This document shows, piece after piece, positions 5,399 through 44,128 of a DNA stretch of 64,000 nt. Both the position numbers and the translations under genes were made by a program. The stretch is from Candidatus Giovannonibacteria bacterium (GTDB lineage Bacteria > Patescibacteriota > Minisyncoccia > UBA11713 > 2-01-FULL-45-33), in NCBI GenBank assembly GCA_016432405.1, contig CP066687.1, positions 219,040 to 283,039 on the forward strand, written 5' to 3'. The notes under the pieces are model-generated. The model was not told where the DNA came from and searched no databases. It saw only the letters and a list, made by a program, of their open reading frames with translations. The number at the start of each line of letters is the position of its first letter. The stretch's first letter is position 1.

Positions 5399-5399
5399 A

Positions 5400-8967: not shown

Positions 8968-8997
8968 TAAGCGCGGCGGAGGTTGTATAATAAAGCC

Positions 8998-9618
8998 ATG
9001 CAGCAGAGCGACCATATAGAAACGTATTTAAACGAAGTTGTAGAGATTACAAAACGCATAGACCGTGGCTCTATACGCAAAATCGTCGGGATCTTGCGGG
9101 ATTTAAGAAATAAAAAAGGGCGCCTGTTTATTATCGGCGTCGGCGGTTCGGCGGCAAACGCCTCGCATGCTGTTAATGATTTCCGAAAAATTGCCCATAT
9201 TCAATCTTACGCTCCAACGGATAACGTCGCCGAGCTTACCGCTAGAGTAAACGATGACGGCTGGGATTCTGTTTTCGCGCGCTGGCTAGAGCATAATCAC
9301 ATAACGCCCAATGACGCAGTTTTGGTTTTGTCAGTTGGCGGAGGCAACGCTGAAAAAAACATAAGCGCAAATATTGTACATGCGCTGAATCACGCCAAAG
9401 AGCGCGGCGCAAAAATATTGGGCATTGTGAGCCGCGACGGCGGGTATACAGCTAAAGTCGCCGATGCCTGTGTTTTGGTGCCGGTTGTGAATCCGGACAA
9501 CGTGACGGCGCACGCGGAAGCATGGCAGGCGGTGCTGTGGCACGCGATTGTTTTTCATCCTGAATTAAAAATGACTGAAGGAAAATGGGAAAGCATAGAA
9601 AAACCGATGTTGTCTTAG
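8998..9618 (+). CDS. gmhA: SIS-domain sedoheptulose-7-phosphate isomerase
   Basis: LFIIGVGGSAANASHAVNDF...LVLSVGGGN...GAKILGIV is the phosphoheptose isomerase signature. GGAGG lies upstream. The ORF track starts at a TTG at 8983; I prefer the ATG at 8998. Confidence 0.75.
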   Translation: MQQSDHIETYLNEVVEITKRIDRGSIRKIVGILRDLRNKKGRLFIIGVGGSAANASHAVNDFRKIAHIQSYAPTDNVAELTARVNDDGWDSVFARWLEHNHITPNDAVLVLSVGGGNAEKNISANIVHALNHAKERGAKILGIVSRDGGYTAKVADACVLVPVVNPDNVTAHAEAWQAVLWHAIVFHPELKMTEGKWESIEKPMLS

Positions 9619-9633
9619 AGACAACAATTTTTC

Positions 9634-9662
9634 TTGACTAATATTAAAGGATTTGCTAGCAT
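9634..9662 (+). promoter_or_regulatory. Candidate sigma70-like promoter upstream of the P-loop kinase / gmhB / tal genes
   Basis: TTGACT, a 17-nt spacer, then TGcTAGCAT (extended -10-like) in a 76-bp intergenic gap. Confidence 0.3.
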
Positions 9663-9694
9663 AGCGGCTAGAAAATAAAACCCGGAGGTGACTC

Positions 9695-10330
9695 GTGATA
9701 GCAAATTTCCGTTTTGCGTTGGACAAACCAACGCTCATTTTGGGCGCGGGCATAGCAAGCAGCGGGAAAAGCACGGTTTTCAGGCCGATTGCGGCCGCGT
9801 TGTTTGATTCGGTGTATGTAGAAAAGGACCTGATTAACGATGCTTTTTTATGGATGCCCAAAAGCGGGGAAAGGCGGGACATGTCCCGTTATCTGGTTTC
9901 CGAGCGCATTTCAAATCAGAGTCCCATTTACAGGGATCACATATGGCTGCAAAGCTACCACTGCATGCTGATGTTGGCGCGGCAGGCGCTGGAGTTGGGG
10001 AAGCACCCGATCTTGGAAGGAAATTACGTTAAGGAAATTCGGTGGGGATATATTGAAAAGGTTTTGTTGCCCCAGCTCGCCGGTATCAACTATAAGCTTA
10101 AAATTCTTCTTGCGCATGCTCCGGCTGATTTGATTCGCGAAAGGATAATAAAACGCGACGAAGGCCGCGACAAAAAAGTAATAAGTTCCGACGAAGAATG
10201 GCAGCGCTTGCTTGCCGAACAGCCGCCCATCCCGCCAGAGATTGAGAAGTACCCGCATATGAAAATTGACACCTCCGAAGCGTTGTCTCTCCAAGCGCTT
10301 TTTGAGATCATGAGGTTTTTGGCTGATTAG
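9695..10330 (+). CDS. P-loop NTPase / predicted kinase (AAA_33 / zeta-toxin-like fold)
   Basis: Walker A GAGIASSGKST near the N-terminus. GTG start with GGAGGTG 5 nt upstream. 211 aa. Confidence 0.5.
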   Translation: MIANFRFALDKPTLILGAGIASSGKSTVFRPIAAALFDSVYVEKDLINDAFLWMPKSGERRDMSRYLVSERISNQSPIYRDHIWLQSYHCMLMLARQALELGKHPILEGNYVKEIRWGYIEKVLLPQLAGINYKLKILLAHAPADLIRERIIKRDEGRDKKVISSDEEWQRLLAEQPPIPPEIEKYPHMKIDTSEALSLQALFEIMRFLAD

Positions 10331-10394
10331 TTTTTGAGAGCCTCGGCTCGCCGCGTTACTGGCGGGCCTTTTATTTTGTTATTATTTTAGACAT

Positions 10395-10940
10395 ATGGCG
10401 CATGTCGGCAACAAAGCTGTTTTTTTTGACAGGGATGGCGTGATTCTCAAAGCGGTAGTAGATGCCGGCGTGCCGCGGCCGCCGTACAGCGTTGCTGAAT
10501 ATAAAGAGAAAAGCGGAATTATGCCTGGGGCAAAAGAAGCGGTTGAAGCGGTGCGCAGAAACGGCTTTCTTGCTATTTTGGCAACGAACCAGCCGGATAT
10601 TCGGTATGGGAGGATCACAAAGGAAGACTGGCAGTGGATACAGAACCAGATTGTGGATATTCCGTTTGACGATATTTTTATATGCTTTCACGGACGAGAT
10701 GACGGGTGCGAGTGCAAAAAACCGAAGCCGGGAATGCTGATTGCGGCCGCAAAAAAATGGGGGATTGATTTAAAAAAAACTTTTATGGTCGGGGATTCTG
10801 AAAGCGACGTGAAAGCCGGCCAAGCCGCAGGATGCAAAATAATTTTAATAGACCATGAACAAAATAAAAATTTGGAGCCCGATTTCAGGGTGACAAATTT
10901 ATCGGAAGTGGTAAAATTGATAAATGAAAATATTTATTGA
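10395..10940 (+). CDS. gmhB: D-glycero-D-manno-heptose-1,7-bisphosphate phosphatase (HAD superfamily)
   Basis: FFDRDGVI is the HAD motif I. CFHGRDDGCECKKPKPGM is the GmhB zinc-loop CxCxKP motif. MVGDSESD is motif III. Confidence 0.8.
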   Translation: MAHVGNKAVFFDRDGVILKAVVDAGVPRPPYSVAEYKEKSGIMPGAKEAVEAVRRNGFLAILATNQPDIRYGRITKEDWQWIQNQIVDIPFDDIFICFHGRDDGCECKKPKPGMLIAAAKKWGIDLKKTFMVGDSESDVKAGQAAGCKIILIDHEQNKNLEPDFRVTNLSEVVKLINENIY

Positions 10941-11658
10941 TAGCGCGAATTTAAACGATATTGAGGAGGCCTTAAAACGCGGATTCGCGGAGGGGATTAC
11001 GACAAATCCGTCTCTTCTGGCAAAAGAGCCGAAATCCTCTTTTGAGGCGCACATCGGAAAAATTGTGGAGCTGATTAAAAAACATCAGCCGGGTATTCAT
11101 TTGAGCGTGGAAGTTTTTTCGCGCGACCAAAAAATTATTTTGGAGCAGGCACAGAAATTTATGAAGCAGTTTGCTTATCCGCAAATGAGCATTAAGGTGC
11201 AAGTTGGGTGGGATGAACTTGAAACCATTAAAAAATTGAGCGCGGCTGGCATTTCGGTAAACTGCACTGCCTGTATGAATGTGACGCAAGCCGTGATGGC
11301 CGCGCGTGCTGGCGCAAAATACGTCAGTTTGTTTTGGGGCAGAATCCGCGACGGCGGGACAGATGCGGCAATGTCTAAAGAGCGAGATGAAGCCGTAAAT
11401 AAAAGAGCTTTAGACAGCGACGATTTCAATCCTTTTAAGGTTGTTCAGGCGACGCGGCAGATTTTTGACCAGGACAAAATTCCATCAGAAATTATCGCGG
11501 GCAGCATGCGCAGTGCCGTTGACGTCAGAAACGCGCGTTTAGCCGGCGCTCATATTGTGACCGTGCCCCCCAAATTTTTTCCAGATATGATTTCCCACTT
11601 CAAAACCGACCAAGTCGTCAACCAATTTTTGACTGATTTTGAAAAATGGATGAGCTAA
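10924..11658 (+). CDS. tal: Transaldolase / fructose-6-phosphate aldolase family (short type)
   Basis: FIDSANLNDIE...GITTNPSL signature; 244 aa; the product sedoheptulose-7-phosphate is the GmhA substrate. Confidence 0.7.
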   Translation: MKIFIDSANLNDIEEALKRGFAEGITTNPSLLAKEPKSSFEAHIGKIVELIKKHQPGIHLSVEVFSRDQKIILEQAQKFMKQFAYPQMSIKVQVGWDELETIKKLSAAGISVNCTACMNVTQAVMAARAGAKYVSLFWGRIRDGGTDAAMSKERDEAVNKRALDSDDFNPFKVVQATRQIFDQDKIPSEIIAGSMRSAVDVRNARLAGAHIVTVPPKFFPDMISHFKTDQVVNQFLTDFEKWMS

Positions 11659-12521
11659 AAAAAACTATAAAAAATTTAATAATCTCAATGCGGCCAAGGC
11701 AGTGGATAAAAAACCTCTTTCTTTTTGCCGCCATAATTTTCGTAAAGCAGTTTTCGGATATTGAGAAGCTGGCGGCTGTTTTTGAGGCCTTTATCATTTT
11801 CTGCTTCGCCTCAAGCGCGATTTATCTGCTAAATGACGCAGTGGACGCGCCGTATGACCGCAGACACCCGCAAAAACGCCTAAGGCCGATCGCCGCTGGA
11901 GAGCTCCCAGTATTCGGAGCTGTTTTCGCAGCCGCGGTTTTCGGAGCGCTCTCCGTTTTTTGGAGTTTTTACATAAATAATTTTTTCGCGCTTGCCGTTA
12001 TCGGATTTTTGGCGCTTAATGTTTTATATTCGTTTTATCTCAAGCGTTTCGTGATAATTGACGTGATAACAATCGCTTTGGGTTTTGTCATCCGCGTCAT
12101 CGCCGGCGCAGTCGCCATAGACGTCCGGTTTTCGGAATGGCTGATTCTTTCAACTTTTTTCCTGACGCTTTTTTTGGCTATTTCCAAGAGGAAAAACGAG
12201 CTTATGCATGCAGAGGAAACCGAAGCGCGCGAGGGGCTTGGCAGATATTCTCTCGCTCTCTTGGACCAGATGAATGCGATTGTTTTGCCTTCCACCATTA
12301 TCACCTACGCTTTTTATACGTTCAGCTCCGAGCACAGCAAGCTTCTCATGATTACAATACCCATCGTGCTTTACGGGCTTTTTCGGTATTTATTTTTGAT
12401 AAACATAAAAACGCGGAGCGACGATGGTCCCACGGACGATTTGCTTTTAGACAAACATTTGCTCGCCACTGTTTTTATCTGGCTCGCGGTTTCCGTAGCA
12501 ATGATTCTTTATGCCGGATAG
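11646..12521 (+). CDS. UbiA-family prenyltransferase, polyprenyl-phosphate phosphoribosyltransferase (DPPR synthase, Rv3806c)-like
   Basis: LLNDAVDAPYDRRHPQKRLRPIAAGEL carries the NDxxDxxxD motif; about 8 TM helices; 291 aa. Confidence 0.6.
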   Translation: MDELKKTIKNLIISMRPRQWIKNLFLFAAIIFVKQFSDIEKLAAVFEAFIIFCFASSAIYLLNDAVDAPYDRRHPQKRLRPIAAGELPVFGAVFAAAVFGALSVFWSFYINNFFALAVIGFLALNVLYSFYLKRFVIIDVITIALGFVIRVIAGAVAIDVRFSEWLILSTFFLTLFLAISKRKNELMHAEETEAREGLGRYSLALLDQMNAIVLPSTIITYAFYTFSSEHSKLLMITIPIVLYGLFRYLFLINIKTRSDDGPTDDLLLDKHLLATVFIWLAVSVAMILYAG

Positions 12522-12540
12522 ATTTTTTGAGGAGCTGGAT

Positions 12541-12918
12541 ATGCCGCGGCAGGGGGCTGTGATTTTTTTGGACATTGACGGCACTTTGCGGCCGGACGGA
12601 GATCAAGGAATGAGTCAGGAGGTTTTAAATAAGCTGGCGGAGCTTAAGGCCAAAAACGAAGTTCATTTAATCAGCAATAAAGGCAACGGCGCAAAAAAGC
12701 CGAGCCGAGAAGCGGCAGAGGGCGTTGATATGGCCGGGAAAAAAGTTGTGGTGATAGGCGATAAATTTTTGACGGACGGGCTGTTCGCGAAAAATATCGG
12801 AGCCGAATTCGTTAAAGTCAGAAGAAAAATTTCAGGCCGGGAGAATTTTTTTGTTAAAGTCGCGTATTTTATTGACGATTTTATTTCTGCTATATTATGG
12901 AAACAAAAAAATATTTAA
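12541..12918 (+). CDS. HAD superfamily phosphatase (small, IIIA-like)
   Basis: [11 protein letters not shown] is the HAD motif I; GDKFLTDG is motif III. GAGGAG lies 7 nt upstream of the ATG at 12541. Confidence 0.55.
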
Positions 12919-13940
12919 TAACAGGCGGCGCCGGGTTTTTGGGAATTAACCTCGCGCGTTTTCTGCTCAAAAAAGGGCAGAAAGTAAGAATTCTGGATTT
13001 GGCCCAGTTTGATTACCCGGAGAGAAACAAGGTTGAGGCGCTGCTCGGGGACACAAGAGATAAATCAGGCGTTGATAAAGCGATGGACAGAATTGACATT
13101 GTTGTCCATGCGGCGGCCGCGTTGCCGCTTTATTCGCAAAAAGACATATACTCCACGGAAGTGGACGGAACAAAAAACGTTTTAGAAAGCGCCGGGCGGC
13201 GCAACGTTGACAGATTTATACATATTTCCAGCACGGCGGTTTACGGCATTCCCGACCACCACCCGATTTACGAAAATGATAAGCTTCAGGGAGTTGGGCC
13301 TTACGGCGAGGCGAAAATTCTGGCGGAGAAATTTTGCGAGGAAGCAAGAAAAAATGGAATGTGCGTTACAATTCTCCGGCCGAAATCTTTTGTGGGACCC
13401 GAGCGGTTGGGGGTTTTCGCGCTTTTTTACGATTGGGCGGGCACCGGGCACAATTTCCCCATGATCGGCAACGGAAAAAACAGCTACCAGCTTTTAGACG
13501 TTGAAGATTTATGCGAGGCGATTTTTCTTTCGGCTACCTTGCCGAAAGAAAAGGCCAACGACACTTTCAATGTCGGCGCAAAGGATTTTGCGACGATGCG
13601 CCGGGACTGGCAGGCGGTTTTGGACCGCGCGGGATTCGGCAAAAAAATTATCGGTTTGCCCGCTGCCCCCATGATTTTTGTTTTGAGATTCTTGGAGATT
13701 TTGCGCCTTTCACCTCTTTACAAATGGGTTTATGAAACCGCAGGCAAGGACTCTTTTGTGTCAGTGGAAAAAGCTGAACGGATTTTGGGATTCCGTCCAA
13801 AATATTCCAACAAAGAAGCGCTCGTCCGCAACTATGAATGGTATTTGGCTAATCTGGATAAATTTAAAAACCAGACCGGGGTATCCCACCGCGTCCCGTG
13901 GAAACAGGGGATTTTAAAAATCGCTAAGCTTTTTTTTTGA
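12897..13940 (+). CDS. NAD-dependent epimerase/dehydratase (extended SDR)
   Basis: ITGGAGFLG glycine-rich motif; YGEAK is the catalytic YxxxK; 347 aa. Confidence 0.7.
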
Positions 13941-13943
13941 GTT

Positions 13944-14537
13944 ATGCGGTTTGACCTTTTGCGGGCCGCAATTGTGGGGGAAGCCATCGCGCTTTTGACT
14001 TTGCCGACGTTAAAAAATATAAATTTTTTTGAGCCGACATTTGTCGCCGTCTGGCTGGTCTTCGTGCCCGCGGCGGCGCTCGCCGGTTTTTATTTGATTT
14101 ATTTGACGTCGGCGAGGCGGCCCGTCTTGCTGGAGTTGGGAAAATACGGCCTCGTCGGATGCTTCAATTTTTTTCTGGACGCGGGCATTTTCAACTTTTT
14201 TATTTTAATTACTGGCATTGCCAGGGGTTGGCCGGTGGACGTTTTTATAATAATTGCTTTTGCGATAACGATAACGCAAAGTTTTTTGTGGAATAAATTC
14301 TGGATTTTTAAGGCGAACGATTTGGCCAATGCGCGCGCGCAGTACGCAAAATTTTTCAGCATGACTGTTGTCACTTCCCTTTTAGGGCTTTTGTTTATGC
14401 ATCTTATGATAAATACCATCGGTGCTCCCTCCGGTTTTGATTTGAAAGTTTGGGCGAATCTCGCGCTTTTAGTTTTGATACCGACGTCTGCCCTGGGCAA
14501 TTTCCTTGGCTATAAGTTTTTTGTTTTTAAAAAATGA
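13944..14537 (+). CDS. GtrA-family protein (lipid-linked sugar translocase / flippase family)
   Basis: LGKYGLVGCFNFFLDAGIFNFF...SFLWNKFWIFK is the GtrA signature; 4-5 TM helices. Confidence 0.65.
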   Translation: MRFDLLRAAIVGEAIALLTLPTLKNINFFEPTFVAVWLVFVPAAALAGFYLIYLTSARRPVLLELGKYGLVGCFNFFLDAGIFNFFILITGIARGWPVDVFIIIAFAITITQSFLWNKFWIFKANDLANARAQYAKFFSMTVVTSLLGLLFMHLMINTIGAPSGFDLKVWANLALLVLIPTSALGNFLGYKFFVFKK

Positions 14538-15202
14538 CTCACGCCGAATATTGCAGCAAGTTTATTCCCGCCGGCGGCAGGGTCTTGGATGTGGGCTCCG
14601 GCAGGGGCGATTTTCTGCGCGAGATGGCCGGCTTGGGATTTGACGCGTGCGGAGTTGAGCCGAACACCGAGCGGATTTTTTCCGCAATAGGCGGACCAGC
14701 CTTTGGCCGGGAAAAGGTTGTGAAGGTAAGCGCCGAAAACTTGCCGTTCCCCGATAATCATTTTGATTTTGTAAATTGCGCCGAGGTCAGCGAGCACGTT
14801 GACGATCCTTCTAAGATGCTCCAAGAAATTTTTCGGGTTCTAAAGCCCGGAGGGAAATGCTACACAAGTTTTCACAATCGCTTGGGGGTTTACGACTATC
14901 ATTATCGGCTTTATTTTATAAACTGGATGCCGAGGGTTTGGACAGAGCCGATTTTAAAATTTTTAGGAAAACAAAAAGAGGACGGCCCGGCCGGACGCCA
15001 GAAACTGACCACGATGCATTATTATACTTACGGACAAGTTTTGAAAATGCTTCACAATGCCAGTTTTTCCGCAGAAGACATCCGAAAAGAGAAAATTAGA
15101 CAATTCTTCGGCATCACGCGCTTGCCGTTTTTTATTTTATATTTCACATTGCTTCGTCCGTTATATTTCAACACCTTCCATTTTTTGCTTGCCAAACCTT
15201 AA
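14534..15202 (+). CDS. Class I SAM-dependent methyltransferase
   Basis: VLDVGSGRGDF is motif I; LKPGGKCY is the post-II motif. Confidence 0.7.
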   Translation: MTHAEYCSKFIPAGGRVLDVGSGRGDFLREMAGLGFDACGVEPNTERIFSAIGGPAFGREKVVKVSAENLPFPDNHFDFVNCAEVSEHVDDPSKMLQEIFRVLKPGGKCYTSFHNRLGVYDYHYRLYFINWMPRVWTEPILKFLGKQKEDGPAGRQKLTTMHYYTYGQVLKMLHNASFSAEDIRKEKIRQFFGITRLPFFILYFTLLRPLYFNTFHFLLAKP

Positions 15203-15227
15203 TCCGACCTGATAAGTTATAAGAGAT

Positions 15228-16985
15228 ATGAGATTTCTTGTAACCGGAGGGTGCGGATTTATGGGGTCAAATTTTATCCATTATGTTTTGGATAATTTCC
15301 CCGAGAGCGCTGTCATAAATCTTGACCTCTTGACGTACGCCGGAAACGAGGAAAATCTTCGCGGCGTCCCGCCATCCAGATACCGGTTTGTGAAAGGTGA
15401 CATTTGCGACACGGAGCTCGTAAAAAAGCTGATGCGGGAATCCGACTTCGTCGTAAACTTCGCCGCCGAGAGTCATGTGGACAGGTCAATCCATTCCGAC
15501 GCCGACGATTTTGTCCATACCAATGTCGTAGGAGTCCACTCGCTTTTGAAAGCGTTGAGGGGCTCGCCTAACGTTAAAAAGATGGTTCATATCTCGACGG
15601 ACGAAGTCTGGGGCGATTTGCATTTTAAGTCGCAGGAGAAGTTTACCGAAGAGTCGCCGCTTAGGCCGAGTTCTCCGTACGCCGCTTCCAAGGCCGCCGG
15701 CGAAATGCTTGTGCGTGCTTATCATAAAACCTATGGCCTGCCGGTGGTCATTTCGCGTTCGGTCAACAATTTCGGGCCGAGGCAGCATCCGGAAAAAGTG
15801 ATTCCGTTTTTCGCCATGCTGGCAATGGACAACAAGCCCCTGCCGATTCACGGCAGCGGTTTAAATGTGCGGTCGTGGATTCACGTAGACGACCACACCC
15901 GCGCCGTCCTCGCTCTTTTGGAAAAAGCTCCCTCGGGGGAGATATACGGCGTTTCCGCAGATGAAGAGTGCTCAAACATGGATATTGCCGGAAAAATATT
16001 GAGAATTTTAAACAAGCGGGAAAACCTGGTTACTTTCGTTGAAGACCGTCCGGCAAATGACAGGAGGTATGCGGTTAATCCGTCAAAGCTGCTCGCTTTA
16101 GGATGGCGCCCCCAGCGTTCGCTGGACAGCCACATCCCGGTGACCATTGATTGGTATAAAGAAAATCAGACATGGCTTAGTAGTGTTGCCAGGAAGTATG
16201 AAAGCACGAGCGAAGAGATGCGGCGTTCGTCCGCAGATATCAGAAAAAGGGCGCTTGCTGGTTCGCCCGCCAGATCTCTTTCAATTTTTTTCCCGTGCCT
16301 TAACGAGAAAGGGACAATCGCCACAATGGTTTTGGAAGGCAGAAAAACCGCCGTGTCGCTCACGGACGATTTTGAAATTATTGTCGTAGACGATGGCTCC
16401 ACCGACGGCAGCCGCGAGCTTCTTTTGGAGCTTCAAAAGAGCGTTCCGGAATTAAAATTAGTTTTTCGCGAAAAGAGGGGTTACGGCGCGGCGCTTAGAA
16501 ATGGATTTAAGGCGGCAACAAAAGAGCTTGTTTTTTATACCGATGGCGACGGGCAATATGACGTGAGTGAATTACCGATGCTGTGGAATAAATTAACCAA
16601 CGAAGTAGATATTGTAAATGGCTACAAAATTAAACGAGCCGACCCGTTGTACCGCATTATCATTGGTTTTATTTATCAGCATGTTACAAGATGGGCGTTT
16701 TGGTTGCCAATTAGAGACCCTGATTGCGACTTCCGCTTAATTCGCAGAAAAGTGTTTGACACGGTTGAGCTTAAAAGCGATACCGGCACCATAACTATTG
16801 AGATTGTAAAAAGAATTCAGCAAGCCGGCTTCCGTTTTGTTGAAGTTGGAGTTTCGCATTACAACCGCACATATGGAAGTTCTCAATTTTTTAACTTCCG
16901 TAGGATCGTTGTCACATTATGGCGTTTGGCTTTTTTGTGGGTGGAGCTGATTATATTTTCGGGCAGACGAAAAAATCATGGATGA
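15228..16985 (+). CDS. rfbB: Bifunctional fusion: dTDP-glucose 4,6-dehydratase (RmlB-like) N-terminal domain plus a GT2 glycosyltransferase C-terminal domain
   Basis: N-terminus VTGGCGFMGSNFIHYVL...NLDLLTYAGNEENL with YAASKAAGE, typical of RmlB. C-terminus from about residue 345: VVDDGSTDGS...YTDGDGQYD, a GT2 DxD core. 585 aa. Confidence 0.65.
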   Translation: MRFLVTGGCGFMGSNFIHYVLDNFPESAVINLDLLTYAGNEENLRGVPPSRYRFVKGDICDTELVKKLMRESDFVVNFAAESHVDRSIHSDADDFVHTNVVGVHSLLKALRGSPNVKKMVHISTDEVWGDLHFKSQEKFTEESPLRPSSPYAASKAAGEMLVRAYHKTYGLPVVISRSVNNFGPRQHPEKVIPFFAMLAMDNKPLPIHGSGLNVRSWIHVDDHTRAVLALLEKAPSGEIYGVSADEECSNMDIAGKILRILNKRENLVTFVEDRPANDRRYAVNPSKLLALGWRPQRSLDSHIPVTIDWYKENQTWLSSVARKYESTSEEMRRSSADIRKRALAGSPARSLSIFFPCLNEKGTIATMVLEGRKTAVSLTDDFEIIVVDDGSTDGSRELLLELQKSVPELKLVFREKRGYGAALRNGFKAATKELVFYTDGDGQYDVSELPMLWNKLTNEVDIVNGYKIKRADPLYRIIIGFIYQHVTRWAFWLPIRDPDCDFRLIRRKVFDTVELKSDTGTITIEIVKRIQQAGFRFVEVGVSHYNRTYGSSQFFNFRRIVVTLWRLAFLWVELIIFSGRRKNHG

Positions 16986-17373
16986 AATCATATTAAAATC
17001 GGTTAAGGGGCCGGTTGGCGAGCTACACGCAGGCAAGATCTACGAGCAAATACCGTTTGCCATAAAAGAGTTTTACGTTATACAGAATGTCCCCAATCGG
17101 CAGATTGCGCGCGGGATGCACGCGCATAAAAAACGGGAGCAGGTAATTTTTTGCCTGCAGGGCTCATTCACGCTCCATATGGATGACGGAAACAAAAAAT
17201 GGAGCGTTGTAATGAATGACCCGGCGCGCGGCATGCGGCTTAAAAAAAGAGTGTGGCATTCAATGACGGATTTTTCCAAGGACTGCATTATGCTTGTCGT
17301 GGCAGACGATTTTGAAGACGCAAGCGATTACATCAGGGATTACGACGAGTTTTTGAAGTTTGTAAAAACATGA
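16978..17373 (+). CDS. fdtA: dTDP-4-dehydro-6-deoxyglucose 3,4-ketoisomerase (FdtA/QdtA, WxcM-like cupin)
   Basis: ARGMHAHKKREQVIFCLQGSFTLHMDDG matches the FdtA RGxHAHKxxxQ...GSF core; 131 aa. Confidence 0.65.
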   Translation: MDEIILKSVKGPVGELHAGKIYEQIPFAIKEFYVIQNVPNRQIARGMHAHKKREQVIFCLQGSFTLHMDDGNKKWSVVMNDPARGMRLKKRVWHSMTDFSKDCIMLVVADDFEDASDYIRDYDEFLKFVKT

Positions 17374-18206
17374 ATCAAGCCAGATGCACAATATGCGGCA
17401 ACGCTGCCAATAATCTGACTAAAGATGCCGAGCTTTTTATTTACGAGTGCTCTTTGTGTAGCCATGTGTTTGCTGTTATACCTGCGGACCAGCAAAAAAA
17501 ATATAATCATGATTATTTTACCAAAGAACACGAGAACTGGTTTAAAAATCCGAACACGAAACTTTTTCGCTTTATAGCCGGTCAAATCAATGCGCATTTT
17601 GGTCAGAAAAATATTGCGCTTTTGGATGTTGGCTGCGGCAACGGAGATTTTCTAAAATTTTTTTACCGGCACCGCGGCAATTCAACGTTATGCGGCATAG
17701 ACGTTGCTCGGCTTTTTGAAGACGCAAACATTTCTTTTTTACATGGCGATTTTAATACGATGGAGCTCAAGCAAAATTTTGACGTTGTTACCAGTCTGAT
17801 GGCTATTGAGCATATAGAGAATCCTGTTTTATTTACTAAAAAGATTTTCAGCGCTTTGGAGCGCGATGGCATGGCTGTTGTGGCGACTATCAACAGCAAC
17901 GGCCTAATTTATCGTTTAGCCGGCTTATTGAAGGCGCTGGGCATTCGAGGCCCGTACGAAAGGCTTTATGACCACGCGCATCTGCAGCATTATACAAACG
18001 CGTCTTTGAAAAAACTTTTGGAAAACTGCGGATTTGAAGTTCTTTTGCAAAGAAATCATAATTTCCCGCTAGCCGCCTTAGATGTGCCCAAAAGCAATGT
18101 AGTTTTAGAAACCGTTTATCGCGCCGGAGTAGCCGCTATTTTTACGCTTACCTCGGTTTTCGGCGGAGGCATGGACCAGACCATAATTTGTAGAAAGGCC
18201 CCATGA
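17370..18206 (+). CDS. SAM-dependent methyltransferase with an N-terminal Cys4 zinc ribbon
   Basis: CTICGN...CSLCSH zinc ribbon; LLDVGCGNGDF is motif I. Confidence 0.6.
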   Translation: MNQARCTICGNAANNLTKDAELFIYECSLCSHVFAVIPADQQKKYNHDYFTKEHENWFKNPNTKLFRFIAGQINAHFGQKNIALLDVGCGNGDFLKFFYRHRGNSTLCGIDVARLFEDANISFLHGDFNTMELKQNFDVVTSLMAIEHIENPVLFTKKIFSALERDGMAVVATINSNGLIYRLAGLLKALGIRGPYERLYDHAHLQHYTNASLKKLLENCGFEVLLQRNHNFPLAALDVPKSNVVLETVYRAGVAAIFTLTSVFGGGMDQTIICRKAP

Positions 18207-18721
18207 TTCAATTTTTTGACTTTCACAAAAATTATTACACGGGAATAAAAGGCGTATATTTTCGTAGAATTTTAAAAAAAATAATAAAAATAGGTGATTT
18301 GAGCAGTAAACGGGTGCTTGATTTCGGCTGCGGGAGGGGCGAACTAAAAAAACTTTTGCCGAGCGTTGTGGGCTACGACATTTTGCCTGATTTGAGCGAC
18401 GTAGCGGACTGGAGAAGCGTTAAATTTGACACGGTGGTGGCGAACGAAGTATTCTATCTTTTTTCCAAAAAAGAGCTTGAGATTTTTTTAGACGAACTTT
18501 ATAAATGCAATCCCAAAGCAGAATTGATTGTCGGTATCAGCAGGCAGAGTATTTTAAACAACATCGCCAAATATCTCGGCGACGTAAAAGACGCTTATGC
18601 TGGGACTAAGCTTTCGCCGAGCGAGGAATTGGCTGTCTTGAAAGACAGAATGAATGTGATTGACAAAAAAACTGTATGGTTTATGTGTAATATATACTTA
18701 CTTCGTTTTAAACATTTGTAG
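18203..18721 (+). CDS. Small class I SAM-dependent methyltransferase
   Basis: VLDFGCGRGEL is motif I; 172 aa. Confidence 0.55.
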   Translation: MIQFFDFHKNYYTGIKGVYFRRILKKIIKIGDLSSKRVLDFGCGRGELKKLLPSVVGYDILPDLSDVADWRSVKFDTVVANEVFYLFSKKELEIFLDELYKCNPKAELIVGISRQSILNNIAKYLGDVKDAYAGTKLSPSEELAVLKDRMNVIDKKTVWFMCNIYLLRFKHL

Positions 18722-18722
18722 C

Positions 18723-19793
18723 ATGATTAAATTCGTAGATTTTACAAGAGAATACATATCTATAAAGAGCGAAATAGACGCCGCTATCAAGAAAGTCTTG
18801 CGGCGCGGAGTTTTCATTTTGGGTCCGGAGGTGGAAAATTTTGAAAAAAAATTCGCGAAATATTGCGGCGTCCGATACGCCGTGGGAGTCGCGTCCGGCA
18901 CGGACGCGCTCTATTTGAGCTTGCTGGCTTTGGGTATTGGGCGAGGAGATGAGGTGATTGTGCCGGTAAATACCGCTTTGGCGACTGCTATGGCCGTTAA
19001 GATGAGCGGAGCCAAGCCGGTTTTTTGCGACTCTGATGAAAATTTTTTGATAGACATAGACAAAATCCCGGCGCTTATAAATAAAAAAACAAAAGCGCTT
19101 ATCCCAGTGCATCTTTACGGCAGGGCGTGCAATATGGATAAATTAAGAGTCGTCGCAAAAAAACACAAACTATTTTTAATAGAAGATTGCGCGCAGGCGG
19201 CTGGGGCAAAATGGCGCGGCAAAAAAGCCGGCGGCTGGGGGGATTTTAGCTGCTTTAGTTTTTATCCGACAAAGAATTTGGGCGCTTACGGGGATGGGGG
19301 AGCCGTAACAACAAATAGCGAAGACCATTATAAAAAATTACGGGCATTGCGCTTTTACGGGGCGCACGACCGGATAACCAGCGCGATGTTCGGCATAAAC
19401 AGCCGTTTGGACGAAAAGCAGGCCGCGATTTTGAGCGTTAAGTTGAAATATCTGGATAACTGGAACAAAAAAAGAGCGTCCCTGGCCGATCTTTATAGAA
19501 AACTGATTACTAATAAAAATATTACTTTGCCTGCGGCAAATTCTGGCGAACACGTCTATCATTTATTCGTCGCGCGCGCGAAAAACCGCGACGCTCTGAT
19601 GAACGTGCTGAAAAAGAAAAGCGTTCAAACTATGATTCACTATCCGCTTCTTCTTCATGAGCAGCCGGTTTTTAATTACAAAGGCAAATTTGCCAACGCC
19701 GAAAAATATTCCAAAGAAATTTTTTCTTTGCCTATTCATCCGTTTTTGAAAAAAGAAGAAGTAGCGCGGATAGCCAAAATTTTAAATGCGTGA
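18723..19793 (+). CDS. DegT/DnrJ/EryC1/StrS family sugar aminotransferase (FdtB/QdtB-like)
   Basis: ILGPEVENFEKKFAKYCG...AVGVASGTDAL; FSFYPTKNLGA contains the PLP-lysine region. I chose the ATG at 18723, directly after the upstream stop. Confidence 0.75.
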   Translation: MIKFVDFTREYISIKSEIDAAIKKVLRRGVFILGPEVENFEKKFAKYCGVRYAVGVASGTDALYLSLLALGIGRGDEVIVPVNTALATAMAVKMSGAKPVFCDSDENFLIDIDKIPALINKKTKALIPVHLYGRACNMDKLRVVAKKHKLFLIEDCAQAAGAKWRGKKAGGWGDFSCFSFYPTKNLGAYGDGGAVTTNSEDHYKKLRALRFYGAHDRITSAMFGINSRLDEKQAAILSVKLKYLDNWNKKRASLADLYRKLITNKNITLPAANSGEHVYHLFVARAKNRDALMNVLKKKSVQTMIHYPLLLHEQPVFNYKGKFANAEKYSKEIFSLPIHPFLKKEEVARIAKILNA

Positions 19794-21522
19794 ACACGGC
19801 TTGATTATTATTTTGGGGCTCCTTCTGACTCTTTTGATTGAGGCGCCGCTTTTGGTGTTTCCTTTTGTTTCAAAAAATTATCAGGGCATCAACATTCCGC
19901 ATTTCGGCACCGATTCGCATTTTTATTTAAGCCGCGCCAAAGAAGCTTTGGAAGGGCGCGGCATGGGCAATCCGTGGCTGCGCGAAGGCAAGGAGCGGCA
20001 AGACATTATGTTTATGTATAACGAGCGCGCGCTTACTGCGCCGATAAGATTTCTGGGGCTTGCTGATAGAATCAATGTTGTAACTCTGTATAACATCTAT
20101 AATTTTATCGGGATTTTTATTTTGATTTTACTTGCTTATTTTTTTGTTTGGCAACTTTCGGGAAGCAAACTTTTATCCGCCGTCGCGGCGGTGTTTGCGA
20201 TCGGCGGCTACCATATTGTCTACAGGCAATTTCTTTACAATGATTTCAACATCTACGGCCGGCCGATGTTTCCTTACATGAGTTCTTTGGCTTTTTTTGC
20301 GTATTTAAATCTTTTAGTGTTATGGCTTAGGACGAAAAAATTTATTTACGGGCTTTTCTCCGCCGTCGCGCTTGGTTCGCTTTTTTACATATACTTTTTT
20401 GCCTGGACTTTCGCTTTGGCTTTAAACGGAGCGCTGTTTTTGCTGTATTTTCTAAAGCGCGAATGGGCGCCCGCAAAATCGCTGACTCTTATTTCCGCGG
20501 CCGGCGTACTTATCGGGTTTTATAATCTTTTTCAGATGTGGGCGCTCTTTCAATCCGACATCGGCGCGCAGATTGCGTATTTCCATTGGTCAAGCCGCAC
20601 GCATCTGCCGATTTTCAGTAAAATCGGCGCCGCCATGCTTTTGCTCCTCGCGTTTTTTTGGTACCGGAAACGAAATAATGAAAGGATTATTTTAATTTCG
20701 GCTTTGATTTTGGCCGGCTGGATTTCTTTAAACCAACAAATAATCACCGGCAAGGCGGTTGAGATCGGGCATTACTACTGGTATTTCATTGTCCCGCTTT
20801 CCATTCTCGCCGGCTTGTACATGTTATGGGAACTGCTGGATAATTTCGCGTGGCGGAAGCAGTTGTTTGCGTCTATGCTGGTTGTCGTATTTTTGCACGG
20901 CGCACTGGGGCAGTATCGTTCTTTTTTCATTACCTTGCCGGGGAAGGAATATGAGCAATCATACCGGCCGATAATTGCGGAATTAAAAAAAGACGCTGCC
21001 CCCGGAGTTGTATTGGCCGCGGACGACTATTTGGCTTATCTGATTGCAATTTATACCGACCGTGATTTATTTTGGGCGGGAGCGGCTTCGCAGACGATAA
21101 TGCCTTTTTCGCGTTTTTCCGACATGCTTTATGTTTACGCATATTTAAATAAAGAGGCGCGAGGGGATTTTGCCGGCTACTTGCGCAGCTTGATGAGCGA
21201 TGCAACCGACGACTCTTTTTATAAAGGCCTTTACGGATTTATAGAGGGGTTTTCCTCCGGCATGGATTATTATGATTATGTTTATAAAGCGAAAACAGAC
21301 AAAAATGTTATAGGTCCGCACAGGGAGCGGCTGATTGCCGATCTCGCTCGCGAATATTCTCAATTGACGGGCGGCGGCGGGATGGCCGGCTTGTTGAAAA
21401 AATACGGCGTCAAATACATTGTTTGGGACAAAAACAGACATCCCGAATGGGACTTGTCTTTTCTGAAATTTAAACTGCTTCTTGAGCATAACAATATAGA
21501 CCTTTACGAGGTTATATATTGA
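19786..21522 (+). CDS. Large polytopic membrane protein, putative GT-C-type glycosyltransferase (paralogue 3)
   Basis: Same architecture as 5400..7139 and 7144..8967. Shared motifs include INQQIITGK, YYWYF and a C-terminal YIVWDKN..PEWDLS. Confidence 0.5.
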   Translation: MREHGLIIILGLLLTLLIEAPLLVFPFVSKNYQGINIPHFGTDSHFYLSRAKEALEGRGMGNPWLREGKERQDIMFMYNERALTAPIRFLGLADRINVVTLYNIYNFIGIFILILLAYFFVWQLSGSKLLSAVAAVFAIGGYHIVYRQFLYNDFNIYGRPMFPYMSSLAFFAYLNLLVLWLRTKKFIYGLFSAVALGSLFYIYFFAWTFALALNGALFLLYFLKREWAPAKSLTLISAAGVLIGFYNLFQMWALFQSDIGAQIAYFHWSSRTHLPIFSKIGAAMLLLLAFFWYRKRNNERIILISALILAGWISLNQQIITGKAVEIGHYYWYFIVPLSILAGLYMLWELLDNFAWRKQLFASMLVVVFLHGALGQYRSFFITLPGKEYEQSYRPIIAELKKDAAPGVVLAADDYLAYLIAIYTDRDLFWAGAASQTIMPFSRFSDMLYVYAYLNKEARGDFAGYLRSLMSDATDDSFYKGLYGFIEGFSSGMDYYDYVYKAKTDKNVIGPHRERLIADLAREYSQLTGGGGMAGLLKKYGVKYIVWDKNRHPEWDLSFLKFKLLLEHNNIDLYEVIY

Positions 21523-21523
21523 T

Positions 21524-23173
21524 ATGCAGAGCGGCAGGGAAACTATCGTAATCGTTGGCTATGGCTGGGTGGGGCAGGCAAACGCCTTGGCGCTTACTCG
21601 GATGGGACACGAGGTTTTTTACTATGACATCGCGCCGCCTGTTTTGAGATATGCGGATAAGCACGCCGAGCTTTATGAAAGAATAAAACCGCTCGGAGAA
21701 GTTTTAGAAAAAGACGGCGAAAACACTTGGTATATTGTCGCCGTGGGAGACAGGGTGCTGGAAGACGGCTCGCAGGATATAACGCTTATAAAAAAAACCT
21801 TGGACGCGTTGAAACCGGCGCGCGGCAGAATAATTTTGCGCTCAACCGTTTTGTCGCAAAATTTGGAGAAGCTCAATTTTGATTTTTATGTTCCGGAATT
21901 TTTGCACGAACGCCACGCGGTTGAAGAATGCTTGAACCCGTATTATTTTGTTTTGGGCAAGCGAGGCAATATAGATGAACCAAATTTTTTGATGGACTGG
22001 CGGCTCCGGGCTAAAAAAGTTTTTAAAGGCACCCCCAAGCAGGCGTCCTACATCAAATATCTCTCCAATCTTTGGAACGCGGCCAGAGTCGCTTTTATAA
22101 ATGAATTCGGTGACTTGGCGCGGGACGAGGCGGTTATTGATTTTGTTTTTGAGAAAAAAAATTATTTGAGATATGGACAGGCGTTCGGCGGGCATTGCCT
22201 GCCCAAGGACCTTTTGGCGTTCTGGAGCGCGCACGCGGCGGATAAGAATGTAGAGCTCCTTCGCGCGGCTTATTTAAGCAATGAGCTCCACAAAAAAAGC
22301 GAGGCGGAGCAGGGCCCTTTGCCGGAATGGTTTTCGTCTTGGGAGGAGGAGCGGCGGGCGCTCGGCGAGATGCGCACGGGGGCTTTTTTGTGGAATAAAT
22401 TTAATTTAGCGCCGCCGGTTCAGGCGGCGCGGAGGAGATTAAGGTTTTTGGTGAATATCGCCTCGCGCCTTACTCCGAAGAGGTCGTTGGGAAACGTTAA
22501 AGAGATTTGGAATGATTTGGCGCGCAAAAACGCCAGATATTTCACGAACACCAAAACGCCGAGCGGCCGGGACGTAAATGAATTTGAGCTTCGGGAAACT
22601 GGTTTGGCGGATTATGAAAAATATGTCGCCGAGGATACTTTGCTCGCGCCGGTTTTGCGCAATCCGCCAGCTGGCCCCGACGGCACCGTCGGGGCTGGCG
22701 GACAAAATCAGTCAAGCGTTCTGGAGGTCGGCTGCGGGCTTGGGAGAATGACGGAATTTTTTCCGCGGCATTTTGCCAAAACTTCGGCTATTGATATCTC
22801 GGATATTATGGTGGAAAGCGCCAAAAAAAGGGTGGCGGACGCGAAAAACATAGATTTTAAAATTTCTGACGGCAAAACCATTGCCTTTCCGGACAATCAT
22901 TTTAATTTGGTTTTTTCATACCAGACGCTTCAGCATATCCCCGCGCGCGAAATTTTGGCTGAAAAATTTACAGAAATTTATCGGACATTGAAGCCCGGCG
23001 GGATGGCGAAACTGCATCTTCGCACTGGGCGTGGCCCCTACAAATGGCACTGGGCGTACGGCGTTTCGGTAACGCCCGTTGAAACAAAAGGGCTTGCCGA
23101 AACCGCCGGTTTTAAATTTATCAAGCACGAAATAGAAAACCCAAAAAGCTTATGGGTTTGGCTTGCTAAATAA
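21524..23173 (+). CDS. Chimeric protein: nucleotide-sugar dehydrogenase-like N-terminal region fused to a class I SAM methyltransferase C-terminal domain
   Basis: IVIVGYGWVGQANA Rossmann motif. GGHCLPKD matches the catalytic-Cys motif of UDP-glucose/GDP-mannose dehydrogenases. C-terminus VLEVGCGLGRM...LKPGG is an MTase. Confidence 0.5.
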   Translation: MQSGRETIVIVGYGWVGQANALALTRMGHEVFYYDIAPPVLRYADKHAELYERIKPLGEVLEKDGENTWYIVAVGDRVLEDGSQDITLIKKTLDALKPARGRIILRSTVLSQNLEKLNFDFYVPEFLHERHAVEECLNPYYFVLGKRGNIDEPNFLMDWRLRAKKVFKGTPKQASYIKYLSNLWNAARVAFINEFGDLARDEAVIDFVFEKKNYLRYGQAFGGHCLPKDLLAFWSAHAADKNVELLRAAYLSNELHKKSEAEQGPLPEWFSSWEEERRALGEMRTGAFLWNKFNLAPPVQAARRRLRFLVNIASRLTPKRSLGNVKEIWNDLARKNARYFTNTKTPSGRDVNEFELRETGLADYEKYVAEDTLLAPVLRNPPAGPDGTVGAGGQNQSSVLEVGCGLGRMTEFFPRHFAKTSAIDISDIMVESAKKRVADAKNIDFKISDGKTIAFPDNHFNLVFSYQTLQHIPAREILAEKFTEIYRTLKPGGMAKLHLRTGRGPYKWHWAYGVSVTPVETKGLAETAGFKFIKHEIENPKSLWVWLAK

Positions 23174-24787: not shown

Positions 24788-25894
24788 TTATTTCGCAAAA
24801 AACTTTTTTATCTCGTCGCAAACTCTTAAGATATCCTCGTCCGTCAGCGTGAAGGCCGAGGGAAGCCAGAGGGATTTCGGCAAAAGCTCGGTGCTCACCG
24901 GAAAATTGTCATCAGGGAGCTTGTAGGGAGTTTGTCTGTGGATAGGATGCCAGTATTTTCTGCAATCAATATTTTTTTCGCGAAGATATTTTTCAAGTTC
25001 GTCTCGTTTGTCCGTCATAATATCCGTCCATTGCGGCATTTCTTCACTCGTGGACGGAAAAATTTTTATTTCTTTAACATCTTTTAAGTTTTCCGCGTAA
25101 AGCTCGTAATTTCTCTTCATCCTTGCGAATCTTTCCGAAAGATGCGCGAACTGCCCAAGTCCTACGGCAGCCTGCAAATCAGTCATGCGGAAATTGTAGC
25201 CGATTGTATCATGCAGGTCGTCCCCTCCCGTGCCGCGGACCGGGCGGCCTTGATCTTTCAGCGGGCGCAATTTTTTTAAAATTTCATCGCTGTTCGTCAC
25301 AATCATCCCGCCCTGCCCGGTGGCTAAGGTTTTGTTGGCGGCGAAAGAAAAACATCCGGCATCTCCGAACGTGCCCAAATATTTCCCTCCGCCGGAGGCG
25401 GAATGTTTTGAGCCGAGCGCTTCGGCAGCGTCTTCCACCACGAAAATATTATTTTTTTTGGCGATGTCCAAAATGGCTTCCATGTCGGCGACTCTTCCGG
25501 TAACATGCACCGGGATTATCGCTTTGGTTTTGGGCGTTATGGCTTTTTTTACGGCCTCAACGCTCACCGTAAGCGTTTTTGGGTCAATGTCAACTAATAC
25601 CGGTTTCGCGCCTGTGAGCTCCACGGCGTTTGCGGTTGCGATAAAAGTCGCGTCAGGCACGATGACTTCGTCCTCATGCCCGACGCCGACGGCTTTTAAA
25701 GACAAAAAAATGGCCGCTGTGCCGCTGGTCGTCGCTACGGCGTGTTTCGCGCCAACGAAATAAGCGATTTTCTTTTCAAATTCCTCCGTAAGCGGGCCTT
25801 CGTTTATAAAATTGGTGTCCAGCGCTCGCTTGATGAATTCGTAGTCCTCTTTTTCAACCCGCGGCTGCCACCAGGGGATTTTTTTATTTTCCAT
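24788..25894 (-). CDS. DegT/DnrJ/EryC1/StrS family sugar aminotransferase
   Basis: WWQPRVEKEDYEFIKRAL...AVATTSGTAAI...FSFAANKTL; 368 aa. Confidence 0.75.
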   Translation of the reverse strand: MENKKIPWWQPRVEKEDYEFIKRALDTNFINEGPLTEEFEKKIAYFVGAKHAVATTSGTAAIFLSLKAVGVGHEDEVIVPDATFIATANAVELTGAKPVLVDIDPKTLTVSVEAVKKAITPKTKAIIPVHVTGRVADMEAILDIAKKNNIFVVEDAAEALGSKHSASGGGKYLGTFGDAGCFSFAANKTLATGQGGMIVTNSDEILKKLRPLKDQGRPVRGTGGDDLHDTIGYNFRMTDLQAAVGLGQFAHLSERFARMKRNYELYAENLKDVKEIKIFPSTSEEMPQWTDIMTDKRDELEKYLREKNIDCRKYWHPIHRQTPYKLPDDNFPVSTELLPKSLWLPSAFTLTDEDILRVCDEIKKFFAK

Positions 25895-27112: not shown

Positions 27113-27120
27113 TGACTATA

Positions 27121-27149
27121 TTATAACCTATTGCATTTAAATTGGTTTT
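27121..27149 (+). promoter_or_regulatory. Candidate sigma70-like promoter for the 27198 gene, in a divergent intergenic region
   Basis: TTGCAT, a 17-nt spacer, then TATACT. GGAGGG RBS lies 7 nt before the ATG at 27198. Confidence 0.35.
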
Positions 27150-27197
27150 AGTATATACTCTACGTTCAGATGCCCAAAACACAGAGGAGGGCTGAAG

Positions 27198-32707: not shown

Positions 32708-32710
32708 ATT

Positions 32711-35335: not shown

Positions 35336-35350
35336 AAAAGTTTTAAAAGC

Positions 35351-36076: not shown

Positions 36077-36083
36077 ATTTTCT

Positions 36084-37971: not shown

Positions 37972-37973
37972 AT

Positions 37974-39942: not shown

Positions 39943-39950
39943 AAAACAAT

Positions 39951-41084: not shown

Positions 41085-41089
41085 AATCT

Positions 41090-42034: not shown

Positions 42035-42071
42035 TAAGGTTCCGAAAGATTACATAAGAGGAGGTGAGGCG

Positions 42072-44069: not shown

Positions 44070-44128
44070 TTCTCAATTATTATAAATGCGCAGAAAACTT
44101 AATGCAAGCGCCGTTTGTTTAAATATTA

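Follow-up and report, generated by a model that had tools for sequence, protein, structure and literature searches.

The Arn pathway (ArnA/B/C/D/E/F/T) combines a short-chain dehydrogenase/reductase (SDR), a DegT-family aminotransferase, a polyprenyl-phosphate glycosyltransferase of family GT2, a small flippase and a glycosyltransferase of the GT-C fold in the handling of an amino-deoxy sugar, and its bifunctional ArnA protein joins steps of the pathway that are not consecutive. The same logic, with a comparable fusion of enzymes, is encountered in the gene described here, which lies at positions 15228-16985 of a 64,000-nucleotide stretch of a Candidatus Giovannonibacteria genome (contig CP066687.1, positions 219,040 to 283,039; hereafter the window, in whose numbering coordinates are given) from the Candidate Phyla Radiation (CPR, Patescibacteria). 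The gene encodes a dTDP-glucose 4,6-dehydratase, RmlB, joined to a GT2 glycosyltransferase. On the evidence of sequence comparisons and predicted structures, the product is probably a bifunctional protein of an Arn/Gtr-like three-component system, in which a dTDP-derived 3-amino-3,6-dideoxyhexose would be placed on a lipid carrier for subsequent extracytoplasmic transfer.

Likeness to ArnC (PmrF, the undecaprenyl-phosphate Ara4FN transferase) lies in the DxDxQ motif, the basic acceptor residues and the juxtamembrane (JM) helices. However, the GT2 half is only around 25% identical to ArnC and possesses neither its transmembrane helices TM1 and TM2 nor its C-terminal β-hairpin, the absence of which makes ArnC-like tetramerisation of this half unlikely. 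The pathway also departs from Arn in that the sugar is dTDP-based and 6-deoxyhexose-derived, with participation of a 3,4-ketoisomerase, rather than UDP-Ara4N; no formyltransferase or deformylase can be recognised, the organism lacks a lipid A target, and the fusion partner is a 4,6-dehydratase.

In the GtrA/GtrB/GtrC systems and their Gram-positive counterparts CsbB/GtcA/YfhO and GacI/GacL, a polyprenyl-phosphate GT2 enzyme is likewise encoded together with a GtrA-family protein and a polytopic GT-C enzyme. These Gtr-type systems draw on UDP-Glc or UDP-GlcNAc, common donors synthesised elsewhere, whereas the window embeds a dTDP-amino-sugar pathway and fuses it to the GT2 enzyme; moreover, the latter is without transmembrane helices and the GT-C protein comes from a family that has no Pfam model. 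The minimal layout, a GT-A domain plus two interfacial helices, is that of type II dolichyl-phosphate mannose synthases (DPMS) such as human DPM1, and of a PfDPMS variant deprived of its transmembrane domain (PMC5526996), although donor nucleotide and sugar differ and no DPM2/DPM3-like partners were identified. RmlB, a 3,4-ketoisomerase and a C-3 aminotransferase occur together in the FdtA/FdtB (Fuc3N), QdtA/QdtB (Qui3N) and Tyl1a/TylB (mycaminose) pathways, but the resulting dTDP-sugars go to cytoplasmic Leloir glycosyltransferases (of S-layer glycan, O-antigen and macrolides), whereas that of the window would go onto polyprenyl monophosphate. Unlike in those pathways, neither an FdtC/QdtC-type acyltransferase nor a TylM1-type N-methyltransferase is recognisable in the window cluster. 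As for RmlB itself, it is a recurrent fusion partner, as seen in RmlB-RmlD proteins, in intein-containing RmlB and in a reverse-order protein (P0372) described below. A literature search of incomplete coverage yielded no description of an RmlB-GT2 fusion and no lipid-linked 3-amino-3,6-dideoxyhexose system in CPR.

The fusion gene and its dehydratase half

The open reading frame (ORF) extends without interruption along the + strand from 15228 to 16985 and encodes 585 amino acids, with Pfam and NCBIfam matches in both domains. An earlier sequence-only reading of the window had described a single ORF of this length containing two complete domains, and on both counts it was right, since the catalytic residues are intact in each. 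The motifs that it quoted are found at residues 7-16 (GGCGFMGSNF), 151-155 (YAASK), 388-395 (DDGSTDGS) and 438-445 (TDGDGQYD), while STDE occupies residues 123-126; the quoted motifs are 98-100% conserved among homologues, with the exceptions of D388 (89%) and G390 (91%). The corresponding public entry, NCBI QQG42876.1, is named dTDP-glucose 4,6-dehydratase only, with no mention of the GT2 half, an annotation which the present analysis corrects. Public gene callers place the start at Met12 (15261), after an internal GGAGG motif (15245-15261), as in P0001 and P0003. That start costs the protein 11 residues, among them the conserved NAD-binding GxxGxxG loop, and because this loop is invariant the correct start codon is that at 15228.

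The two domains are connected by a linker (residues 319-349; 16182-16274) composed of the C-terminal tail of RmlB, about ten extra residues and the N-terminus of the GT2 module. RmlB proteins that stand alone reach to about residue 333, and GT2 proteins that stand alone start near 343-347. Thus the linker of about 30 residues previously noted does exist, but it consists mostly of native termini and adds only some ten residues to them. The AlphaFold2 model of the fusion has a mean pLDDT of 92.1 and a pTM of 0.73, from an alignment in which only four sequences cover both domains; in it, a single long helix predicted at residues 314-343 includes part of the linker.

The N-terminal half (residues 1-320; 15228-16187) is predicted to be an active dTDP-glucose 4,6-dehydratase. 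Pfam places an SDR/4,6-dehydratase domain at residues 4-302, and the equivalog model TIGR01181 (dTDP-glucose 4,6-dehydratase) in NCBIfam matches residues 3-318 with 406.2 bits against a cutoff of 365.1. The half matches the solved RmlB of Pyrococcus horikoshii (PDB code 2hun, E 2e-93), on which its model superposes with a TM-score of 0.95 and an rmsd of 1.2 Å; it also superposes on 1ker, 1keu and 1r66. The glycines of the GxxGxxG motif at residues 7-13 (G7, G8, G10 and G13), T124-D125-E126, which follow S123, and Y151 and K155 of the YxxxK motif are all present and 100% conserved among homologues. The roles of the GxxGxxG, Thr-Asp-Glu and YxxxK residues are known from structural work on RmlB, which is a homodimer. 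The 64-kb island contains no other RmlB orthologue, its remaining SDRs being at most about 30% identical over partial alignments only, and the pathway therefore needs the RmlB half.

The GT2 half as a probable polyprenyl-phosphate glycosyltransferase

Comparisons with characterised relatives make it likely that the acceptor of the GT2 half (residues 350-585; 16275-16982) is a lipid carrier and not a glycan, a point missing from the sequence-only reading. The Pfam family PF00535 is matched at residues 352-512. When the module was compared with the PDB using phmmer, the closest solved relatives were ArnC (E 7e-17, six entries), Pyrococcus DPMS (5e-10) and Synechocystis GtrB (6e-5), with alignments covering about 215 of its 236 residues (query residues 2-218 in the case of ArnC). 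Among GT2-type NCBIfam models the best matches are ArnC, dolichyl-P hexose transferase and AglJ, all of them below the equivalog cutoffs. The metal/donor motif D439-G-D441-G-Q443 (16542-16556), 98-100% conserved, is the counterpart of DADLQ in ArnC, GtrB and DPMS, its key residues aligning with D100-A-D102-L-Q104 of ArnC; the DADLQ[NDH] definition and the lipid-phosphate residues of ArnC are those of bioRxiv 10.1101/2025.01.29.634835. K467, R470 and R476, conserved in 95-100% of 65 family members, align with ArnC R128, R131 and R137, the first and last of which bind undecaprenyl phosphate according to the same study. In PfDPMS the lipid-phosphate binders are the basic/acceptor residues R117, R131 and S135.

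Two helices of the AlphaFold2 model sit at the JM positions of ArnC and DPMS. The first, at residues 474-491 (16647-16700), is a predicted interfacial helix with K467, R470 and R476 at or near its start. The second is the C-terminal hydrophobic/amphipathic helix at residues 557-581 (16896-16970), which aligns with JM2 of ArnC, contains embedded Arg and Glu residues and is followed by only four further residues; it is the one hydrophobic segment of the half. Thus the C-terminal membrane anchor of relatives, comprising two transmembrane helices in ArnC and GtrB and four in PfDPMS, is absent, as is the tetramerising β-hairpin of ArnC and GtrB. In the related proteins P0095, P0097 and P0098, methyltransferase or radical-SAM domains that depend on S-adenosylmethionine (SAM) directly follow the last GT2 helix. 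Since such domains must be cytoplasmic, the helix at 557-581 is unlikely to span the membrane. PfDPMS without its whole transmembrane domain (Δ230-352) is still targeted to membranes and retains wild-type activity, and human DPM1 has no transmembrane helices (PMC5526996), so that these helices are not universal in the polyprenyl-phosphate glycosyltransferase family. By analogy, and from the model, the GT2 half would be attached to the cytoplasmic side of the membrane by its two interfacial helices.

The module most often occurs as a standalone protein of 230-250 residues, 60-76% identical across many Patescibacteria lineages, with relatives at 40-63% identity in many other phyla. Two more short GT2 enzymes lacking transmembrane helices are encoded in the window, at 361-1083 and 1749-2432, flanking a nucleotidyltransferase gene at 1080-1745; their best solved matches are GtrB (8e-13) and ArnC (2e-33). 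In all, the window encodes three GT2 proteins of polyprenyl-phosphate type without transmembrane helices.

Reality and rarity of the fusion

It is barely credible that adjacent rmlB and GT2 genes have been falsely joined here through a lost stop codon or a frameshift. Such an error might be suspected from the occurrence of RmlB and GT2 as separate genes in distant relatives and from the small size, about ten residues beyond the native termini, of the linker. However, the identical product (574/585 residues) is called on 11 contigs from independent assemblies and at least four sequencing runs (SRR12113418, -19, -22 and -25), in addition to QQG42876.1, which comes from a 651-kb contig of a Candidatus Giovannonibacteria metagenome-assembled genome (MAG). 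In three more clusters, of 78, 71 and 69% identity, a single ORF again encodes the two domains, and the linker between them is homologous. The search for the same fusion in related genomes, which the sequence-only reading had advised, was also successful: it is present in Ca. Giovannonibacteria RIFCSPHIGHO2_01_FULL_45_24 (locus L011), a GTDB representative. Furthermore, loss of a single stop codon would be insufficient, because an RmlA gene lies between rmlB and GT2 in the unfused relatives. The earlier argument against an assembly artefact is thus upheld. Separate genes, in which that reading would have seen a sign of artefact, do exist, but in more distant relatives, where they represent the ancestral unfused state.

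The fusion is very rare. In 185,579 species, each represented by one genome, the junction is spanned in exactly one other locus, L011. When all 1.84 billion representatives of 50%-identity clusters were scanned with HMMER, the RmlB-then-GT2 order appeared in a single cluster, with scores dropping from 1066 bits for the fusion to 422 bits for RmlB alone. The reverse order, GT2 then RmlB, is seen in the 606-residue protein P0372, whose DPM1-like GT2 is only 28% identical; since this protein is unrelated, RmlB and GT2 have been joined at least twice. Inteins (Intein_splicing, LAGLIDADG) interrupt the RmlB homologues P0380, P0436 and P0487 from public metagenomes.

Cassette, origin of the fusion and replacement of its GT2 module

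Judged from comparison of gene orders, the fusion is a product of neighbouring genes in a conserved cassette, RmlB-RmlA-GT2-FdtA-DegT. In L007 and L010 a divergent GtrA gene is followed by RmlB, RmlA-like, GT2, FdtA and DegT genes and then by one for a PMT_2-family GT-C enzyme, while L008, L001 and L011 have variants with added methyltransferases. A GtrA gene adjoins the cassette in L007, L010, L011, L012 and L014. The order in the window is GtrA, methyltransferase, RmlB-GT2, FdtA, methyltransferase, a 172-residue protein, DegT and a 578-residue membrane protein, all on the + strand. Small overlaps, of a few bases, between most neighbours in this region (13944-21522) point to a single operon; a scan for promoters and terminators gave counts at the level expected from shuffled sequence.

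The members of this row comprise, besides the fusion, a GtrA-family membrane protein and candidate flippase (13944-14537, PF04138); a class I SAM methyltransferase of 222 residues (14534-15202), 79% identical to its L011 counterpart; an FdtA-type dTDP-4-keto-6-deoxyglucose 3,4-ketoisomerase (16978-17373, PF05523); a second class I SAM methyltransferase, of 278 residues and with generic class I similarity (17370-18206); the 172-residue protein (18203-18721), which is weakly methyltransferase-like and has orthologues of 42-45% identity adjoining FdtA or DegT in L001 and L010; a DegT-family sugar aminotransferase of the C-3 type (18660-19793, PF01041), started by gene callers at 18723 to give 356 residues; and the 578-residue protein (19786-21522). 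The downstream genes previously listed, FdtA-like, two methyltransferases and DegT, are therefore recovered, the second methyltransferase only weakly so.

The order RmlB-RmlA-GT2 accounts for the types of fusion seen. Adjacent genes are joined in RmlA-GT2 proteins (P0099; P0120 = L012), and in QQG42876.1 RmlB is joined to GT2 with no RmlA gene between them. Other members are GT2-methyltransferase (P0095), RmlA-GT2-methyltransferase (P0098) and GT2-radical SAM (P0097) fusions, and in a Gammaproteobacteria MAG a GT2 of 53% identity is attached to a multi-pass membrane domain of about 500 residues (L034, 6718-8964). Together the RmlB-GT2, RmlA-GT2, GT2-methyltransferase, GT2-radical SAM and GT2-GT-C proteins provide Rosetta-stone evidence linking the components. 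Certain other candidates from the survey of the GT2 family, which covered 80 genome loci across phyla, were rejected: L027, L067 and L074 seem to have long extensions at the N-terminus, but these are Arg-rich stretches of spurious ORF in high-GC DNA, and the partial upstream matches in L046, L023, L039, L040, L070 and L079 are not RmlB fusions.

Comparison with L011 reveals that the GT2 module has been replaced. The RmlB half and flanking genes are 85-97% identical at the DNA level, but identity falls to 50-67% across the tract 16248-16967 (10150-10890 in L011) and returns to at least 90% in fdtA. Among the proteins, identity is 94% between the RmlB halves and 58-61% between the GT2 halves. 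The GT2 half of the window is in fact 72-76% identical to standalone GT2 proteins of other CPR lineages, and the GT2 halves of the orthologous fusions are more distant from it. In L011 and L001, but not in the window, the fusion is followed by an additional standalone GT2 gene; the linker is homologous in all four fusions. The simplest reading of these alignments is that there was one fusion event, after which recombination exchanged the GT2 module, the breakpoint on the left side lying at or close to the linker, and that the fused state was kept throughout the exchange.

The sugar

The isomerase is closest to FdtA (PDB 2pa7, E 3e-30), with QdtA next (1e-24). The two top PDB matches of the aminotransferase, 7b0d and 7n63, have uninformative names; its best named matches are the C-3 enzymes QdtB (3frk, 1e-93) and DesV (2oga, 8e-89), which clearly outscore the C-4 enzymes ArnB, perosamine synthase and WecE. 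An FdtA-like isomerase and a QdtB/DesV-like aminotransferase point to a C-3 amino route, and we infer that the cluster can make a dTDP-3-amino-3,6-dideoxyhexose, of galacto or gluco configuration. This fits the pathway first proposed for the locus. The accompanying suggestion of N-methylation, by contrast, finds no sequence support: the three methyltransferase-like proteins give generic class I matches in the PDB, none of them to sugar N,N-dimethyltransferases such as TylM1 or DesVI, so that N-methylation is conjectural. Nor does the operon contain an acyltransferase gene.

Across the surveyed loci, a DegT gene occurs within 6 kb of the GT2 gene in 45 of 80 and both DegT and SDR genes in 40, while FdtA is mostly limited to CPR loci. 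This company of aminotransferase genes across phyla suggests, by analogy with ArnC, that the GT2 family in general may load amino-deoxy sugars onto a lipid carrier.

The predicted GT-C neighbour and GtrA

The last protein of the row, 578 residues long, matches no Pfam or NCBIfam model. It has some ten hydrophobic segments and then a soluble C-terminal domain, and is predicted to have a GT-C fold, making it a candidate extracytoplasmic transferase. AlphaFold2 modelling from a 101-sequence alignment gave a pLDDT of 95.3 and a pTM of 0.93, and every one of the 29 Foldseek matches of the model with E < 0.1 is a GT-C enzyme, at TM-scores of 0.3-0.5; they include PglB/STT3/AglB, DPY19, AftA, ArnT, ALG9/12, Pmt4 and PimE. 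D43, in the first loop, is near-invariant in the family and would be its catalytic acidic residue. Some family members of about 850 residues, P0248, P0278, P0291, P0297 and P0330 among them, bear an N-terminal GT2 domain.

GtrA (13944-14537), the GT2 half (16275-16982) and the GT-C-like protein (19786-21522) are thus encoded together, and the same trio is present in L007, L010 and L011. Three paralogues of the GT-C-like protein, each of about 590 residues and 40-64% identical to one another, are encoded in the window (5358-7139, 7144-8967 and 19786-21522) and are without a Pfam or NCBIfam model; on predicted structure, this appears to be an unannotated GT-C family, widespread in Patescibacteria.

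The GtrA gene also stands at the end of another row. Genes for a UbiA prenyltransferase, a haloacid dehalogenase (HAD) family phosphatase, an SDR and GtrA follow one another at 11646-14537, preceded at 8983-11658 by SIS isomerase, kinase, HAD and transaldolase genes. This arrangement recalls the three-component systems for polyprenyl-phospho-pentofuranose (Kelly et al. 2024, PMC11127046), and also the mycobacterial decaprenyl-phospho-arabinose pathway.

Proposed pathway and alternatives

In the pathway that we favour, the RmlB half would convert dTDP-glucose to dTDP-4-keto-6-deoxyglucose, FdtA would isomerise the 4-keto to the 3-keto form, and DegT would aminate C-3 to give dTDP-3-amino-3,6-dideoxyhexose, after which methylation may follow. 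On the cytoplasmic side of the membrane the GT2 half would then load the sugar onto polyprenyl phosphate, GtrA would flip the lipid-linked product to the other side, and the adjacent GT-C enzyme would pass the sugar to a cell-surface acceptor. The sequence-only reading had seen in the fusion a physical coupling of an early sugar-modifying step to glycosyl transfer. An early enzyme is indeed joined to the transferase, but the steps are not consecutive and simple substrate channelling does not follow. Direct channelling between the fused halves is unlikely, since the intervening steps belong to FdtA, DegT and perhaps methyltransferases; under a channelling model one would expect fusion to the last enzyme, DegT, which is the opposite of the fusions seen. 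The benefit of fusion may lie instead in co-expression at fixed stoichiometry, in tethering of a soluble pathway to the membrane, or in dimerisation of the GT2 half through the RmlB dimer, the ArnC-type oligomerisation elements having been lost.

Several observations weigh against this proposal. Assignment of a lipid acceptor relies on homology at about 25% identity to ArnC; the GtrA gene comes directly after the UbiA/HAD/SDR module and may serve that pathway instead or too; and no RmlA orthologue adjoins the fusion or is found in the 64-kb window, whose only nucleotidyltransferase (1080-1745) is 28% identical to cassette RmlA. In addition, GT2 is fused to the early enzymes RmlA and RmlB and, in the data seen, never to DegT, which makes the donor sugar uncertain. 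On this last ground, the GT2 half might rather take dTDP-glucose or dTDP-4-keto-6-deoxyglucose, consecutive steps then being channelled and later tailoring taking place elsewhere or on the lipid-linked sugar. Restriction of the fusions to RmlA, RmlB or tailoring domains placed after the last helix agrees with such an early donor, as does the 60-76% identity of the module across CPR in the face of variable tailoring genes, which fits a common simple donor. We nevertheless consider it unlikely. To our knowledge, all FdtA and DegT homologues characterised so far use dTDP-linked sugars as substrates, and no precedent came to light for a ketoisomerase or aminotransferase acting on a lipid-linked sugar; the GT2 family keeps company with aminotransferases across phyla, its closest relative ArnC takes a finished amino sugar, and the gene order RmlB-RmlA-GT2 is sufficient to explain which fusions arise.

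The nature of the acceptor could also be questioned, since PF00535 is a broad family, weaker PDB matches of the module include chondroitin synthase and other chain-building GT2 enzymes, and the transmembrane helices of ArnC and GtrB are absent. The GT2 half could then be a conventional Leloir glycosyltransferase delivering the sugar directly to a glycan or to a soluble or lipid-pyrophosphate-linked acceptor. We judge this quite unlikely: the top matches in both the PDB and NCBIfam, over nearly the full length of the module, are all polyprenyl-phosphate glycosyltransferases, the DxDxQ motif, basic acceptor residues and two JM-position helices are conserved, the module repeatedly adjoins genes for GtrA and GT-C proteins and also occurs in fusions with large membrane domains, and polyprenyl-phosphate glycosyltransferases of known activity do exist without transmembrane helices (PMC5526996). 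A catalytically idle RmlB half, retained as a dimerisation or dTDP-binding scaffold for GT2, is very unlikely indeed. Degenerate enzyme domains do serve as scaffolds in other fusions, and conservation of the half in the fusion clade is unusually high (80-94% identity), but its NAD-binding and catalytic residues are intact, it scores above the equivalog cutoff, and the island offers no substitute RmlB. The proposal of a bifunctional protein acting in lipid-linked amino-sugar transfer accordingly retains our preference.

Significance for the CPR envelope

Almost nothing is known experimentally of how CPR bacteria build their cell surface, although as episymbionts they depend on surface contact with a host. 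The locus supplies a concrete pathway, consisting of a dTDP-amino-sugar route, an ArnC-like loader of the lipid carrier, GtrA and a GT-C family with no Pfam model, and the fusion, being rare and lineage-restricted, offers an entry point into CPR envelope glycobiology. Should the proposal be true, a 3-amino-3,6-dideoxyhexose carried on polyprenyl monophosphate would add a new member to the lipid-linked donors, and the minimal polyprenyl-phosphate glycosyltransferase of 235 residues could serve as a compact model enzyme. All components come from known families, so that an established theme is extended rather than a new principle introduced.

A broader picture is possible, though we lean against it. 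The polyprenyl-phosphate glycosyltransferase without transmembrane helices might be a modular membrane-docking hub, repeatedly fused to RmlA, RmlB, methyltransferases, radical-SAM or GT-C domains and swapped by recombination as a specificity cassette. It would thereby open a new lipid-linked cationic-sugar route to the envelope of CPR, in which a 3-amino (possibly methylated) 3,6-dideoxyhexose, delivered via the unannotated GT-C family, would make a functional analogue of Ara4N charge modification in ultra-small bacteria devoid of lipopolysaccharide.

Other features of the window

The 64-kb window as a whole is a single glycan-biosynthesis island. At 32156-49889 there is a nonulosonic-acid pathway of legionaminic/pseudaminic-like type, with a PseB-like dehydratase, DegT, NeuB, a NeuC-like 2-epimerase, a CMP-sugar synthetase and a HisF/HisH-like pair. 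Two further fusions are encoded. In one, of 549 residues (21524-23173), a UDP-glucose/GDP-mannose dehydrogenase, of which the N-terminal and central domains are present and the C-terminal one is apparently absent, is joined to a class I methyltransferase; the other, of 647 residues (2440-4383), joins a GFO/IDH/MocA oxidoreductase to a FAD-dependent oxidoreductase of DAO type. A second DegT aminotransferase gene (24788-25894) adjoins that of a sugar C-methyltransferase on the - strand (25896-27554), which has the TylC3-like architecture of Methyltransf_13/14 and an extra N-terminal region of about 150 residues.

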